A stretch of DNA of 64,000 nucleotides, taken from NCBI RefSeq assembly GCF_022846255.1, contig NZ_AP025682.1. One strand, given 5' to 3'. Below the pieces are notes generated by a model that made no database searches, was not told the DNA's origin, and was given only the letters and a program-made list of their open reading frames with translations. Positions 2,520 through 56,695 of the stretch are shown one piece after another. The DNA comes from Escherichia coli. GTDB lineage: Bacteria > Pseudomonadota > Gammaproteobacteria > Enterobacterales > Enterobacteriaceae. Position numbers and translations under genes: made by a program. Numbering within the stretch: the first letter of the stretch is position 1; each line of letters starts with the position of its first letter.

Positions 2520-2589
2520 TTTTTCAGTAAGGAATCAGGACAGGGATGTTCTTGATGAGGGAATCAGAACTGATAGCAAACGCCAGATT

Positions 2590-2672
2590 GCCCGATGCGC
2601 TGCGCTTATCGGGCCTACCTGGTTCGTGCGACATGTAGGCCGGATAAGGCGTTCACGCCGCATCCGGCACTG
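2590..2672. repeat. REP/BIME-type palindromic units in the hycI-ascB gap
   Basis: Imperfect palindromes of the gcc(g/t)gatgcg...cgcttatc(a/g)ggcctac family, e.g. gtaggccggataaggcgttcacgccgcatccggcac. Confidence 0.7.
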
Positions 2673-2676
2673 TTAC

Positions 2677-5567
<2,891 letters not shown>

Positions 5568-5826
5568 CGGATTTTATCCTGTTATCAGTAGGGTAGATGT
5601 AGTTGTTATCAGTCGACGTGACGGAAAAATGCCGATGCTGAAACGGAATTAGGAAACCGGTTTCACAAAATCATGAATAGTTGTCACTAAATAAGCAAGA
5701 GAGTTAATTGTTCATTTTTTATATTTGTGAAACCGGTCACCTGAATATTTTTCCCACCGATTGCGCAAGGACAATCGGCAAACGGTGCAGTACACTGCGT
5801 TGATTGCGTGTAAAGGGATGAAAATG

Positions 5827-6837
5827 ATGACGACGATGCTGGAAGTGGCGAAGCGCGCCGGGGTTTCAAAAGCGACCGTTTCCCGCGTGCTTTCAGGTAA
5901 TGGCTACGTCAGCCAGGAGACTAAAGATCGCGTGTTTCTGGCGGTAGAAGAGAGCGGTTACCGCCCAAACTTGCTGGCGCGCAATCTGTCGGCGAAGAGT
6001 ACTCAGACGCTGGGGCTGGTCGTGACCAACACGCTTTACCACGGCATTTATTTTAGTGAATTACTCTTTCATGCCGCGCGAATGGCGGAAGAGAAAGGGC
6101 GACAGTTGCTATTGGCAGATGGTAAACACAGCGCCGAAGAAGAGCGCCAGGCGATTCAGTATCTGCTGGATCTGCGCTGCGACGCCATTATGATTTACCC
6201 GCGCTTTTTAAGCGTGGATGAGATTGATGACATCATTGACGCGCACAGTCAGCCGATAATGGTGCTCAATCGACGCCTGCGCAAAAACAGCAGCCATAGC
6301 GTCTGGTGCGATCATAAACAGACCAGCTTTAACGCCGTGGCAGAGTTGATAAACGCCGGGCATCAGGAGATTGCTTTCCTTACCGGCTCGATGGATTCCC
6401 CCACCAGCGTTGAACGTCTTGCCGGGTATAAAGACGCGCTGGCGCAGCATGGTATTGCGCTCAATGAAAAACTTATCGCTAACGGTAAATGGACGCCTGC
6501 CAGCGGGGCCGAAGGGGTAGAAACGTTGCTCGAACGTGGGGCTAAATTTAGCGCGTTAGTTGCCAGTAACGACGATATGGCGATAGGTGCGATCAAAGCG
6601 TTACACGAGCGCGGCGTAGCGGTGCCAGAGCAGGTGTCAGTTATCGGATTCGATGATATCGCTATTGCCCCCTACACCGTTCCGGCGCTCTCCAGCGTAA
6701 AAATTCCGGTAACTGAGATGATTCAGGAAATTATTGGACGGCTGATTTTTATGCTCGATGGCGGGGATTTCTCACCGCCGAAAACCTTCAGCGGAAAACT
6801 GATCCGCCGCGACTCACTCATTGCTCTTTCGCAATAA
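5827..6837 (+). CDS. ascG: LacI/GalR-family repressor of the asc operon
   Basis: N-terminal HTH (VAKRAGVSKATVSRVLSG) and periplasmic-binding-like core; divergent from ascFB; start chosen at MTTMLEV inside the longer ORF (5761..6837). Confidence 0.9.
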   Translation: MTTMLEVAKRAGVSKATVSRVLSGNGYVSQETKDRVFLAVEESGYRPNLLARNLSAKSTQTLGLVVTNTLYHGIYFSELLFHAARMAEEKGRQLLLADGKHSAEEERQAIQYLLDLRCDAIMIYPRFLSVDEIDDIIDAHSQPIMVLNRRLRKNSSHSVWCDHKQTSFNAVAELINAGHQEIAFLTGSMDSPTSVERLAGYKDALAQHGIALNEKLIANGKWTPASGAEGVETLLERGAKFSALVASNDDMAIGAIKALHERGVAVPEQVSVIGFDDIAIAPYTVPALSSVKIPVTEMIQEIIGRLIFMLDGGDFSPPKTFSGKLIRRDSLIALSQ

Positions 6838-15216: not shown

Positions 15217-15982
15217 TGCTCTCTCCGGTTATGATCACGTCGATCCCTTTTTCTTCCAGCGCCTGACGAAACGCTGGATCGATACCTGCGTCGGTAATCA
15301 GCTTATCGACGCTTTCAAGACTACAAACCACGTTGGGGCTTTTACGACCAAACTTCGATGAGTCAGCCATCAAAATCACTTCGCGCGCGGCATTACACAT
15401 CGCCTTACTGACGGTATAGACCTCGTTAAAGGTGGTTACGCCCGCATTGAGATCGATGCCGTCGGTGCCCATAAACAATTTATCGAAGGTGAAATGCTCG
15501 AAGGCATTCTCTGCCAGTTGCCCGTGAAATGAGGCCGATTTTTTGCGAAATGTTCCGCCTGGCATCAGGATAGTTTGTTCGTTATCCAGTTCGGATAGCG
15601 CATTGACGATGTGCAGGCTGTTGGTCATCACCGTGATGTTATTAAAGCGCGATAGCAGAGGCACCATCTGCAACACGGTACTGCCAGCATCAAGAATTAT
15701 TGAGTCGCCATCATGAATAAAACCAACGGCAGCTTCTGCAATCAGCTCTTTTTTGTGGGTGTTGATAAGCGTTTTATGATCGATAGGCGGATCGGATTCC
15801 TCTTTATTCAACACCACTCCGCCATAAGTACGAATGACGGTTCCGGCATGTTCCAGAATGACCAGATCTTTGCGAATGGTTGTGCCTGTGGTGTCAAAGT
15901 ATTGCGCCAATTCTTCAACCGAGCATTTACCCTGCTTTTGCAGATACTCCAGAATGGCGGCCTGACGCTGACGAGGTTTCAT
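15209..15982 (-). CDS. srlR: DeoR-family repressor of the sorbitol (glucitol) operon
   Basis: DeoR HTH N-terminus; start at [14 protein letters not shown], 18 codons inside the longest ORF (15209..16036). Confidence 0.9.
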
Positions 15983-35133: not shown

Positions 35134-36318
35134 TTAATTTGCGGCTTCCTGACGATGAAAACCTCGCCACCAGACCAGTAAGTTAACCAGGGCAATCGTC
35201 GCGCCAGCCAGACACACGCCAGCCCAACCGCCATGTTGCCAGGCTGAGGCTGAAATTAGCGAACCAGCGGCACCGCCAATAAAGTAGCTGGTCATGTAAC
35301 CTGCGGTCAGGCGATTACGCGCATCAGGGTGTATTCGATAAATTACCGTCTGGTTAGTGATATGCACGCCCTGCACGGTGAGGTCCAGCACCAGGATGCC
35401 GATAATCAGCGCCAGTACGGAAGTGTGACCAAACCAGATTGCCAGCCATGAAAGTAACAGCAGCAGCAGACCGAAAGTTGTGGTGTGGTGCGATTTGCCC
35501 TTATCGGCAAAACCGCCCGCCGGACGAGCGCCCAACGCTCCGGCAGCTCCCGCAAGCCCAAACAGACCAATTACACCATCGCTGTAGTTAAAAGGTGGAG
35601 CGGCAAGCAAAAAGGCCATTGAGGTCCAGAGAATGCTGAAGTTGGCAAAGGTCAGGCAGCCCAGCAACGCGCGGGTGCGCAGGATTTTATCGCTGATAAA
35701 CATGCTGAAAACAGAACCTAGCAACTGTGGGTAGTTGAGGTGGGTTTCTGATTTCATTTGTGGCAGACCACGCCATAACGCCAGCGCCATCAGTGCCATT
35801 AATACCGAAGCGACCCAAAAGACAGTTCGCCAGCCACCGAGACTCGCCAGCAATCCGGCAACGGTCCGTGCCAGCAAGATCCCCAACAGCAGCCCGCTCA
35901 TAATGGTGCCGACCACTTTGCCGCGTTTGTCCGGTGAAGCCAGCGTCGCTGCCAGCGGAACCAGAATTTGTGCCACGACTGAGAATAAACCGGTTAATGC
36001 CGTACCGAGGAGCATCATCGCCAGCGACTGACTGCTGGCAGTGATTAACATGCCGCCTGCTGCCAGTAAGGTCATCGAGACAATCAGGCGGCGGCGTTCA
36101 AACATATCACCGAGGGGAACAAGAAACAGCAGACCTGCGGCATAGCCCAACTGCGCGGCGGTAACAATAAAGCCTGCCGAACTGGCGGAAAGGGAAAAGT
36201 TACGCGCGATGGTGTCGAGCAATGGCTGGGCGTAATAGTTACTGGCTACCGCCAGACCGGTGGCGATAGACATCAGCACGATCAGCGCCGGGCTAATCTC
36301 ATGATTAGGTTTAGTCAT
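35134..36318 (-). CDS. ygaY: MFS transporter, apparently intact
   Basis: Uninterrupted 394-aa ORF with about 12 predicted hydrophobic segments. Confidence 0.85.
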   Translation of the reverse strand: MTKPNHEISPALIVLMSIATGLAVASNYYAQPLLDTIARNFSLSASSAGFIVTAAQLGYAAGLLFLVPLGDMFERRRLIVSMTLLAAGGMLITASSQSLAMMLLGTALTGLFSVVAQILVPLAATLASPDKRGKVVGTIMSGLLLGILLARTVAGLLASLGGWRTVFWVASVLMALMALALWRGLPQMKSETHLNYPQLLGSVFSMFISDKILRTRALLGCLTFANFSILWTSMAFLLAAPPFNYSDGVIGLFGLAGAAGALGARPAGGFADKGKSHHTTTFGLLLLLLSWLAIWFGHTSVLALIIGILVLDLTVQGVHITNQTVIYRIHPDARNRLTAGYMTSYFIGGAAGSLISASAWQHGGWAGVCLAGATIALVNLLVWWRGFHRQEAAN

Positions 36319-38623: not shown

Positions 38624-39818
38624 TATTTACCCCCTCACGATCTAAAGCGCGCAGCAGCATTCCTTTCGAAATGATGCCGACATACTGTTGGTCCTCGTCG
38701 ACCACGGGCACCGCACAGGGGGCCTGTCCGACATGAGAGAGCAACTCGCTAAGAGGCGTTTGTGCATCGACCGCTAACGGCGCATCAATCAGCGCCGCAT
38801 CAAGACCTTGCTGCTGCGTTAACGCGGTTTTAAGCGAATCGATAGACACTGCGCCGACAAACTTATTACCGCGTTCGATGACGTAGCCATATTCGCGATC
38901 TTCATCCTGCAATAATTTCAATGCCGAACGCGGGCCGAAGCCGGGGGTTTTACGGATTAAGCCGTTCGGTGTCCGGCGAGCAATATCTTTCGCACTGAAT
39001 ACCTGACTAATATCGACGCCACGGAAGAAGGTACGGACATAATCATTCGCCGGATTATTGAGAATTTCATCCGGTGTGCCGACCTGTACCACTTCACCAT
39101 TTTGCATAATGGCAATTCGGTCGCCAATACGCATAGCTTCATCGAGATCGTGGGAAATAAAGACAATTGTGCGCTGATGTTTCGCCTGTAATTTTACCAG
39201 CTCATCCTGCATCTCGGTGCGAATTAATGGATCGAGTGCTGAGAAGGCTTCGTCCATTAATAATATATCCGGATTAATCGCTAACGCGCGGGCTAATCCC
39301 ACACGTTGACGCATCCCGCCAGAGAGTTCATCCGGGTAGCTGTGGGCATAATTTTCCAGCCCGACCTGACGCAGTGCATCAAGGGCTTTTTCCCGGCGTT
39401 CTTCGGCATTAATTCCGGCCAATTCCATACCGAATGCAGTATTGTCCAGCACGGTCATATGCGGCATTAAGGCAAAGGACTGGAAGACCATCGCAATCTT
39501 TTTTCTGCGCACCTCACGGAGTTCGGCGTCGGATATTTTGGCAATATCCACACCATCAATCAGCACTTGCCCGCGGGTGGGTTCAATCAGGCGATTGAGA
39601 AGGCGTACCATTGTGGATTTACCCGAACCGGATAATCCCATGATGACAAATATCTCGCCTTCTTCAATGGCCAGACTGGCGTCTTTTACGCCAAGCGATA
39701 GCCCAGTTTTTTCCAGAATTTGTTCTTTTGAAAGTCCTTGTTCGATATATTTGAAAGCTCGCTGTGGATGCTCACCAAATATTTTATAAAGATTTTTAAT
39801 TTCTAATTTAATTGCCAT
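38616..39818 (-). CDS. proV: Glycine betaine/proline ABC transporter ATPase with tandem CBS domains
   Basis: 400 aa; Walker [13 protein letters not shown] signature LSGGMRQR, Walker B LLMDEA. Confidence 0.95.
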
Positions 39819-40174
39819 GCAATAGAAAGATTCCTGTTATTTGTTTATGTCGATACATTACCCAATGGAAATAGTCACTTTTTTCTACCCTAACATACTG
39901 AGAATCTGAGGCAACCCCTGATGGCAAATGTGGCATGAATATTGATGTGAGCAAATCGCCGGAATTTCCCATGATATAAGGGCTGAGAGCAAATCGAGAA
40001 AAGTTGATATTTTTTGTCAAAGATAGCGAAAAAACGCCTGAATATTGTGGTTTCAGGCGAATAATGCAACAGAGTGTCAGTGTAGATCACCACAAAATAT
40101 TTGCGTGATAAAAAGCTATTTGGTGGGAATTATTTCCCTGCTGCGGGTAGTGATATTTTTGAAAAATAACACCC

Positions 40175-43986: not shown

Positions 43987-44041
43987 ATACTAGATGTAGT
44001 TGAAAAAAGATTCAACCACACAATATATAGCAAATAGTGGT
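43987..44041 (-). promoter_or_regulatory. nrdHIEF promoter region with NrdR-box-like palindromic half-sites
   Basis: acacaatatatagcaa (44026-44041) and atactagatgtagttg (43987-44002) resemble the ACACwATATATwGTGT NrdR consensus; 70-130 bp upstream of nrdH. Confidence 0.5.
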
Positions 44042-44096
44042 CGAAATTACCCTGGGTATGAGCGTGACGGGGTAGGGGGATTTTTGTGATTCACCA

Positions 44097-44128
44097 GGCA
44101 AAAAGAAACCCCGAAGCCAGGCTTCGGG
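44097..44128 (-). terminator. Rho-independent terminator of ygaM
   Basis: Stem ccccgaagc/gcttcgggg with an A-run on the plus strand, giving a T-run on the minus strand. Confidence 0.75.
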
Positions 44129-44160
44129 GTCAAAGACGCGTATTTATTATCATTATTGCA

Positions 44161-45022: not shown

Positions 45023-45472
45023 TCAGGCTTTTACCTGCTGGTAACGGCTGACTTTAAACAGTCGGCGGCAATAATCGAGGAAGTAGCCATAAACCGCCCC
45101 CATCAACATCGAAACAACGATGTTTGAACTGACCGCCGCCATAATCTGATGCCAGTCTGCGCCCACCACTAACAAGATCGCCACATACACCGGTGACTGG
45201 AACGTCACATAAGCCAGGATATCCGCCAGATTTTTTATCCAGCCCGACGGGCTAACTTTGCGTGCCGCGCGCATAAACAGATCGCGGTACATACCGTATG
45301 GCCATGCAATTAAGATGTTCACCGGAATCGCTACCAATCTGGAATAAAAAGACTGTTCGAAGCTCATTCCGGAGAGGAAAACTTCAATACACATGTTCAC
45401 GACAGAACAGTAAACAACCATCGCGAACGTATCTGCAACTGCATGACGCAAGCGTGACTGCGGTGAGAACAT
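45023..45472 (-). CDS. alaE: L-alanine exporter
   Basis: 149 aa small membrane protein (formerly ygaW). Confidence 0.9.
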
Positions 45473-46139
45473 GCTAATGCTCCTTAATAAAAGCGTAATG
45501 GGATGTTAATGGAGATGAAAGCAGTGGATCTCATTGCCATCTGCATTTTCGCATAGCGTATATCGCTGGCTATGACTAATCAATTAGTGAAAAATTTTTA
45601 TTTAATCTGTTTTTGTAGATAAAATATTCCGTAACGGCGCGTTTTTTGTACATTGTGGATTTTTACATGCCGGTATGATTTATTTTTAATTAAATCAATT
45701 GGATATGTGTTTACCTTTATTTTCACTCATGAAGGTTTGGGGGGGAGGTAACGCTATAAGCGTAGAGAATTCGGTGTATGTAGTGATCGGGTCATTTTCA
45801 GCATTTTTTATGCCAGATAATGTACATTGACAGCAGAAAGCACCAGTGAGTGATGTTTTCTTTTATTCTGTTGAGTTGCATTTTTATTCACTTTGGTTTT
45901 GTCAGGCTTGCGGAATTAGCGAGCAGAGAGCGCCGCTCTGTTCACCAATAACCTAAATTACTCATCAAAATGGCTAATATATAATCTTGAAATTATTCTG
46001 AGAGTTTCAGAAAATAACAGCTGAAATAATCTCGTGCAGGACTGTAAATAGATTAAATTTTGTGGAAATATAATAAGTGATCGCTTACACTACGCGACGA
46101 AATACTTTTTTGTTTTGGCGTTAAAAGGTTTTCTTTATT

Positions 46140-46544
46140 ATGTCCGTAATGTTACAAAGTTTAAATAACATTCGCACCCTCCGTGCGATGGCTCGCGAAT
46201 TCTCCATTGACGTTCTTGAAGAAATGCTCGAAAAATTCAGGGTTGTCACTAAAGAAAGACGTGAAGAAGAAGAACAACAGCAGCGTGAACTGGCAGAGCG
46301 CCAGGAAAAAATTAGCACCTGGCTGGAGCTGATGAAAGCTGACGGAATTAACCCGGAAGAGTTATTGGGTGATAGCTCTGCTGCGGCACCACGCGCTGGT
46401 AAAAAACGCCAGCCGCGTCCGGCGAAATATAAATTCATCGATGTTAACGGTGAAACTAAAACCTGGACCGGTCAGGGCCGTACACCGAAGCCAATCGCTC
46501 AGGCGCTGGCAGAAGGTAAATCTCTCGACGATTTCCTGATCTAA
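46140..46544 (+). CDS. stpA: H-NS paralogue nucleoid protein / RNA chaperone
   Basis: 134 aa [32 protein letters not shown] with C-terminal DNA-binding region; preceded by a 667-bp AT-rich leader. Confidence 0.95.
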
Positions 46545-54672: not shown

Positions 54673-55749
<1,077 letters not shown>

Positions 55750-56179
55750 TTACATATTGTTTTCTTATTGTGATCAAAAACAACAAATTAATAACAAATA
55801 ATGTGAGGGATAAGAATTGGGTTGAAAGGAAATGAATAATTAAAACAATATATTAAGTGTGCTTATACTCTTTTTCGAACTGGTGGCATTTGTTTAAATG
55901 CTATTTAAACTGCTTTTCCAGAGTTCAACTTACTGAGTTCCGTGTCGACTAATGTGAGTAAGATCAATCGCATCCAACCTATGTTACTTGATGGAATCGA
56001 TAACAATATTAATGAATATACAGATTCCGGGAAGGCTGGCTATGGGGGCAAATTATTCTCTTTCTGGCAACAGGTAAATAACAGTGACCATTTGTCGAGA
56101 AGCTGATACTAAGCTGAGGGATACTGTATATGTCTGGACTGTAATTGGATGAATTCTATTCAGGGCGGGTCAGGACCAA

Positions 56180-56205
56180 TAAAAAAGCCCGCATCAGCGG
56201 GCTTT
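56180..56205 (-). terminator. Rho-independent terminator downstream of ssrA
   Basis: Plus strand aaaaaagcccgcatcagcgggcttt, i.e. hairpin plus T-run on the minus strand; about 128 nt beyond the mature tmRNA 3' end. Confidence 0.7.
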
Positions 56206-56332
56206 AATGTCATAGGGAGTCGCGACTCCGTTGCGTATCCTTTTTTGTCTCCTCACCGTCTGGTCGGTGTCCTGCTGAGACTTATAACTTCCTGTTTTTG
56301 TTGGTGTAGTCCTTACACCGTCCAATCATGAT

Positions 56333-56695
56333 TGGTGGAGCTGGCGGGAGTTGAACCCGCGTCCGAAATTCCTACATCCTCGGTACTACATGCTTAGTCA
56401 GTCTTTACATTCGCTTGCCAGCTGCGGACGGACACGCCACTAACAAACTAGCCTGATTAAGTTTTAACGCTTCAACCCCAGGCAGGGCTTCCACGCGATC
56501 TCTTTTGGGTTTGACCTCTCTTGATCCCCGTCCTAAGAGCGGAGGCTAGGGAGAGAGGGCTCTAAGCAGGTTATTAAGCTGCTAAAGCGTAGTTTTCGTC
56601 GTTTGCGACTATTTTTTGCGGCTTTTTACGAGGCCAACCGCCCCTCGGCATGCACCTTGGGTTTCGCAAATCCCGTCGAATCCAGAATCAGCCCC
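56333..56695 (-). ncRNA. ssrA: tmRNA (transfer-messenger RNA, SsrA)
   Basis: Reverse complement begins GGGGCTGATTCTGGATTCGACGGGATTTGCGAAACCCAAGGTGCATGCCGAGGGGCGG and ends ...GGTTCAACTCCCGCCAGCTCCACCA; 363 nt; tag-coding region present. Confidence 0.97.

Follow-up and report, generated by a model that had tools for sequence, protein, structure and literature searches.

The window, the whole 64-kb stretch of Escherichia coli chromosome that was analysed, ran from hyc through srl, recA, csrA, emrAB, proVWX and nrdHIEF to ygaM, ygaC, alaE, stpA, ygaP and ygaV, and then through gab to csiD, ssrA and smpB. The coding sequence of alaE, which encodes the L-alanine exporter, was annotated at 45023-45472 on the minus strand and that of stpA, which encodes the H-NS paralogue, at 46140-46544 on the plus strand. 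The gene coordinates placed the intergenic region between them at 45473-46139, exactly 667 bp and strand-neutral. The GC content of this gap was 0.348 compared to 0.521 for the whole window, and 200-bp windows inside it gave 0.325 to 0.375 with flanks of approximately 0.5. It was the lowest-GC 667-bp stretch of the window, since just 0.085% of 667-bp windows had a GC content ≤0.348. A/T tracts of four or more were found at 34.5 per kb in the gap compared to 9.9 per kb overall (3.5-fold). A preliminary description of a 667-bp AT-rich gap between alaE and stpA was therefore accurate in size and composition, and the AT tracts that it had placed at 45600-45720 and 45960-46130 were present. It had also called the gap ORF-free, which applies in the loose sense that the longest ORF fully within 45473-46139 had just 43 aa and a TTG start.

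The same description had named the gap as the longest non-coding stretch in the window, which was not correct. A longer one, with 682 bp compared to 667 bp, was located at 55651-56332 between csiD/glaH (start 55650) and the tmRNA gene ssrA (56333-56695, minus strand), and the distance from csiD to smpB was 1258 bp without protein genes. With a GC content of 0.382, the csiD/glaH-ssrA gap also ranked second in the window for AT richness. The tmRNA gene adjoined csiD directly with no island, while strain AR_0017 has a P2-like prophage there and K-12 carries CP4-57 at ssrA. Other parts of the window were also variable between strains. The region 2540-6833 (approximately 4.3 kb, hyc genes to hydN) did not align with AR_0017, which at this position has a higB-like toxin, an HTH protein and hypothetical genes. 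At the ygaM-nrdH junction (~44028-44135), AR_0017 has two extra genes of the PLP-dependent aminotransferase and carboxymuconolactone decarboxylase families while the window was K-12-like. Two K-12 Term-seq "orphan" 3' ends, 2800533 on the plus strand and 2800553 on the minus strand, are located at this junction, and their opposite orientation suggests a bidirectional terminator hairpin.

The 667-bp gap sequence was found as a single-copy, chromosomal sequence in 5419 of 5426 complete E. coli genomes. The gap and its flanks in the window were approximately 97% identical to MG1655 2798496-2799163, and the central spacer of the window was a few percent divergent from most E. coli genomes. No RefSeq feature was annotated within the gap in E. 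coli genomes, including MG1655 (NC_000913.3 2798496-2799163). A repetitive extragenic or mobile element was considered for the gap and rejected, as it occupied a single place per genome in the 5419 genomes and its internal repeats were short and at chance level. For the comparison with relatives, 80 Enterobacteriaceae species loci were fetched by AlaE protein scan. The divergent stpA-alaE arrangement was present in 58 of the 80 species, and in all 58 the gap measured 475-789 bp with a GC content of 0.31-0.43. Multiple alignment divided the E. coli gap in three: a conserved alaE side, a variable centre and a conserved stpA side. Many columns of the alaE side (~45553-45712 and the Shine-Dalgarno sequence) were identical in at least 90% of the non-Escherichia species, and the alaE-side block was still located upstream of alaE in 19 species without an adjacent stpA. 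Species of this kind had just ~200-260 bp upstream of alaE, after which several showed a GC-rich hairpin-like sequence, possibly the terminator of the neighbouring gene.

On the alaE side, a start site was mapped by dRNA-seq in E. coli BW25113 at FWD 2797108 (U00096.2), 79 nt upstream of the alaE ATG (PMC4681348). This position is 45551 in the window, and K-12 and the window were identical over this UTR stretch. The offset of 1977 between U00096.2 and U00096.3 was obtained from the genome-length difference and was independently backed by the Shigella stpA coordinate. The alaE 5' UTR was thus 79 nt long (45473..45551, minus strand) and contained the Shine-Dalgarno sequence AAGGAG (45485..45480, minus strand), of which AGGAG was invariant in 19 genera. 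In Citrobacter amalonaticus (locus L014, ~2850-2990), a GC-rich insertion of approximately 140 bp was located between the alaE Shine-Dalgarno sequence and the promoter; it was missing from every other aligned species and resembles a repetitive extragenic or miniature mobile element. Conserved hexamers placed the alaE core promoter at 45555..45583 on the minus strand. Its -35 element TTGATT (45583..45578) had a TTG conserved across genera, including those without stpA. The -10 element could be TACGCT (45560..45555), with a 17-bp spacer, or the overlapping TATACG (45562..45557), and its register was ambiguous: the mapped start 45551 was 4-6 nt beyond the candidate hexamers, and the best-spaced hexamer pair predicted a start 2-4 nt away from it. 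The -10 region reads TATAAT or TACTCT in other genera, with TA..CT / TATA(A/C)T conserved also in those without stpA.

Directly upstream of this promoter was a strongly conserved AT-rich block (45584..45712), approximately -35 to -160 from the alaE start. Conservation reached 8-9 of 10 over AAATTTTTATTTA and TTTTTGT.GATAAAAT in this alaE-proximal block. Curvature prediction, which the preliminary description had proposed as a check, gave a strong peak at ~45617 within the block, the fourth in the 64 kb and in the top 0.13% of positions by an approximate wedge-model calculation. Weaker maxima were predicted at 45822 and 46034 with the same model. The proV upstream region, which is known to be curved, also ranked high in this model (~40015) and served as a positive control. 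The curved block (~45585-45712, peak 45617) was approximately 480 bp from the stpA start. Because the block was kept in genera without an adjacent stpA, the deep conservation is attributed to alaE. As judged from the sequences, the most conserved and most curved part of the gap (~45585-45712) is primarily the control region of alaE and not an extended upstream element of stpA. Given its location and conservation and the published ChIP peaks, the block 45584-45712 probably serves as the cluster of Lrp operators for control of alaE.

On the stpA side, the conserved section was limited to the core promoter and UTR (46060-46139, plus strand). The core promoter (46061..46090, plus strand) consisted of conserved elements at fixed spacing: a -35-like (G/C)TGGAA at 46061-46066, with TGGA.A (46061-46067) conserved in all aligned genera, and a -10 element TACACT at 46085-46090, with TA...T conserved in all aligned genera. 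A better-looking TATAAT at 46069-46074 was rejected as the stpA -10 element as it was not conserved. In the multi-genus alignment, AAAAGGTTTT was conserved at the stpA 5' UTR, which also contained the Shine-Dalgarno sequence AAAGG (46124-46128, plus strand). The stpA start was mapped in E. coli BW25113 at RVS 2796560 (U00096.2), 42 nt upstream of the ATG (PMC4681348). In Shigella flexneri M90T it was mapped at 313081, likewise 42 nt upstream of the ATG, together with three weaker "secondary" starts nearer the stpA ATG (PMC7132871). The stpA UTR of the window was one T shorter than that of K-12, which gave a 5' UTR of approximately 41 nt (46098..46139, plus strand) with the start at 46098/46099. 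The M90T table also lists a "primary" start at 312985, 54 nt inside the stpA ORF (window ~46194), and a K-12 Term-seq 3' end is located inside the stpA ORF at 2798243, 252 nt past the ATG (window ~46392). Both promoters were therefore inside the gap with hexamers that matched the published start sites, as expected for the divergent stpA/alaE regulatory region with an alaE promoter that had been proposed. The term "leader" for the whole gap was not appropriate, since the mapped start sites assign only ~41 nt (stpA) and 79 nt (alaE) to 5' UTRs.

Between the two conserved sides was a poorly conserved, length-variable AT-rich spacer (45713..46059). Its identity to other genera was 0-0.49 and most genera were gapped here. 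Even to E. albertii and E. whittamii, the identity over 45713-45953 was just 0.40-0.59. The alignment also showed a less AT-rich segment of approximately 60 bp within the spacer (45894-45953) that was found in Escherichia only. Most of the variation in gap length (475-789 bp) resided in the spacer. The repeat search showed a 13-nt inverted pair (ATTTAATCT / AGATTAAAT) with arms at 45600-45612 and 46046-46058, which correspond to approximately -49 to -61 relative to the alaE start and -41 to -53 relative to the stpA start. It also showed a direct pair of 23 nt, T-rich and 83% identical, at 45594-45616 and 45880-45902, and 1.9 copies of an 11-bp tandem repeat inside the gap. These repeats were rejected as meaningful elements, as they are probably at chance level for AT-rich DNA and the stpA-side arm of the inverted pair was not conserved outside Escherichia.

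Binding of Lrp to this locus is documented as a double ChIP peak at stpA-alaE (PMC10127797, Ziegler and Freddolino 2023). In the same study, which included a PalaE-lacZ fusion, alaE was under slight repression by Lrp in minimal medium and under strong activation by Lrp when leucine, isoleucine and valine were supplied, while removal of the partner Lrp peak in ygaP decreased the Lrp activation of stpA by more than 5-fold, so that a distal Lrp site acts on stpA from more than 1 kb away. In atomic force microscopy, purified Lrp formed bridges on the stpA-alaE fragment, and added leucine prevented this (PMC10127797). L-alanine and L-leucine induce alaE via Lrp (Ihara et al. 2017, as cited in PMC6801825). 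H-NS silences stpA, and stpA transcription is Lrp-dependent in minimal medium (PMC4668568). In addition, a genomic SELEX study lists the stpA-alaE interval as bound by RpoD holoenzyme, with a flag for H-NS (PMC3946193).

The sequence scans were less discriminating. An Lrp consensus scan allowing up to 3 mismatches gave 2 matches in the gap, approximately the window-wide density, and was non-discriminating either way. The high-affinity H-NS motif (TCGATAAATT-like, up to 2 mismatches) had one match in the gap, with 2 mismatches at 45616-45625, and showed no enrichment; other genera have TCGATAAAAT at this position. Two 1-mismatch matches at the proV start (39742-39751 and 39850-39859) served as a positive control for the scan, and we take them to be consistent with the known downstream regulatory element of proU. 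Elsewhere in the window, exact TCGATAAATT matches were found at 15477-15486 and 35335-35344, and 1-mismatch matches were found inside stpA at 46228 (plus strand) and 46432 (minus strand). Neither scan was taken as evidence for or against binding. Since the Lrp and H-NS consensus scans do not single out the gap, protein binding there rests on the literature and not on the sequence tests. The proposal of an H-NS/StpA-bound, curved region upstream of stpA was thus upheld in part: the published H-NS flag and silencing and the predicted curvature agree with it, but the curved conserved part is that of alaE.

Overall, stpA and alaE in all likelihood share the gap as a region of divergent transcription control. 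Its boundaries, composition, conservation anatomy and promoter hexamers were obtained here, and its start sites, Lrp occupancy and bridging, and H-NS silencing were taken from the literature. On the alaE side, approximately 240 bp would comprise a weak sigma-70 promoter (start ~45551, 79-nt UTR) preceded by the curved conserved block 45584-45712. This block most likely holds an array of Lrp sites through which alaE would be mildly repressed in minimal medium and activated with alanine or leucine. On the stpA side, approximately 80 bp would form a compact conserved promoter with the -10 element TACACT, a start at ~46099 and a 41-nt UTR. The fast-evolving spacer of approximately 350 bp would have no sequence-specific content, and its AT composition may provide the substrate for the H-NS/StpA filaments that silence stpA. 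The spacer would also be located in the path of Lrp-mediated bridging to the second Lrp site inside ygaP. We infer that it acts through composition alone.

A different origin for the spacer is possible though rather unlikely, namely that stpA came beside alaE together with AT-rich flanking DNA and that the spacer is a residue, merely tolerated and coated with H-NS. The short upstream region of alaE in species without an adjacent stpA, ending in several of them in the GC-rich hairpin-like sequence, agrees with such an arrival, as do the fast evolution and variable length of the spacer and its lack of enrichment in Lrp or H-NS motifs. However, the gap was never shorter than 475 bp and was AT-rich in 58 of 58 species, a hint that its composition or length is constrained. 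In addition, the geometry of the spacer may matter because the distal Lrp site affects stpA from more than 1 kb away. A residue would in any case be compatible with a shared control region and does not exclude it.

The preliminary description had also suggested the gap as a reasonable place to look for unannotated transcripts, to be checked by start-site mapping on both strands. The starts of stpA and alaE directly followed one another in the dRNA-seq table of E. coli BW25113, with no other entry inside the gap (PMC4681348), and the Shigella M90T start-site table had nothing between the stpA-proximal sites and 314682 (PMC7132871). The Term-seq 3' ends were located at the stpA terminator and inside stpA and then next beyond alaE, with none in the gap at 27985xx-27990xx in the supplementary tables (Adams et al., bioRxiv 10.1101/2020.07.18.207399). 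Under the sampled conditions, these maps thus showed only the stpA and alaE starts, the very outcome that had been named as speaking against the suggestion. The accompanying statement that no sRNA is annotated here was right, with no RefSeq feature and no Rfam match better than E = 3.3, a noise-level best hit at permissive thresholds. The literature search likewise showed no paper on an sRNA between ygaW and stpA.

With these maps, an unannotated small RNA gene or another independent non-coding transcript in the central AT-rich spacer is highly improbable. The gap is unusually long, and H-NS-bound AT-rich DNA often conceals cryptic promoters. One sigma-70-like match (TTGAAA-17-GAAAAT) was also present in the spacer at 45987-46015 on the plus strand, but the promoter-like matches in the gap were not above shuffles (5 observed compared to 3.4 ± 2.0 expected). 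A terminator scan of both strands of the gap showed no terminator-like site. Fold z-scores against shuffles were not significant for the two UTRs or for the Escherichia-only insert on either strand (-0.2 to -1.45), with -1.45 for the alaE UTR and -0.41 and -1.38 for the insert. The candidate segment was moreover the least conserved part of the gap, with an identity of 0.40-0.59 over 45713-45953 even within Escherichia. The transcript maps covered exponential growth or few standard conditions, all with hns and lrp intact, and this limited sampling is the further point in favour of a hidden RNA. It is quite improbable, though conceivable, that the spacer 45713-46059, including 45894-45953, holds H-NS-silenced cryptic promoters that produce lineage-specific non-coding transcripts. 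They would be active only under conditions beyond those of the maps, for example in hns/stpA mutants, after an upshift in osmolarity or temperature, or under an overload of alanine. If true, cryptic spacer transcription could interfere with stpA or alaE.

For the alaE leader, a leader peptide or attenuator was considered, in which a 20-codon upstream ORF (ATG 45546..45544, minus strand) would couple or occlude alaE translation. The ORF stops 11 nt before the alaE ATG, its stop codon TAA overlaps the alaE Shine-Dalgarno sequence, and an ORF of the same length was found in E. albertii and one other Escherichia species. However, it was confined to three Escherichia loci, being missing in 3 other Escherichia loci and in essentially all other genera, and its ATG was 5 nt from the mapped 5' end with no Shine-Dalgarno sequence. 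RNAalifold of the alaE leader from 19 genera showed no conserved structure, with 5 invariant pairs and no covariation, and the Term-seq tables had no premature 3' end in the alaE UTR. The induction of alaE is already explained by Lrp-dependent transcriptional control, and such a translational mechanism is extremely unlikely. A small protein encoded in the conserved block next to alaE is hardly credible: the candidates, a 25-aa ORF (45653..45576, minus strand) and a 16-aa ORF (45572..45622, plus strand), gave stop-free tblastn matches with at least 80% coverage in 28/53 and 20/53 non-Escherichia gaps, respectively, but the matches of small ORFs of at least 12 aa to other genera merely track conserved DNA, start codons were not conserved (scores of 1-7 at 45649-45653 for the 25-aa ORF), the ORFs either precede or span the alaE promoter, in a stretch with no mapped start site, and the conservation was without three-base periodicity and in A/T tracts typical of protein-binding DNA.

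The shared divergent control region of stpA and alaE is an already known locus and an established model for Lrp double peaks, DNA bridging and the control by H-NS of its own paralogue. What is added here is that the deeply conserved curved block is assigned to alaE and not to stpA, that the TATAAT upstream of stpA, despite its textbook appearance, is not the -10 element that has been conserved, and that the bulk of the gap length is an unconstrained AT-rich spacer. These three points could aid the design of reporter constructs or footprinting and raise no new question.

Compared to the K-12 stpA-alaE region (PMC10127797; Ihara et al. 2017, cited in PMC6801825), the window carries the same locus, and its genes, promoters and start sites are those of K-12. 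The differences were only allelic, such as the one T fewer in the stpA UTR of the window. The multi-site Lrp promoters such as those of dadAX and ilvIH resemble the gap in that an AT-rich array precedes a weak promoter, amino acids modulate the effect of Lrp, and secondary peaks occur with bridging. The consensus scan resolved no individual Lrp sites in the stpA-alaE block. In the proU (proV) region, which is located in the same window, the curved DNA upstream is silenced by H-NS and high-affinity sites for H-NS are found downstream. Like proU, the gap is AT-rich with high predicted curvature and is silenced by H-NS/StpA according to the literature. However, proV has two 1-mismatch H-NS motif matches compared to the one 2-mismatch match of the gap, and at the gap Lrp is the documented specific regulator.
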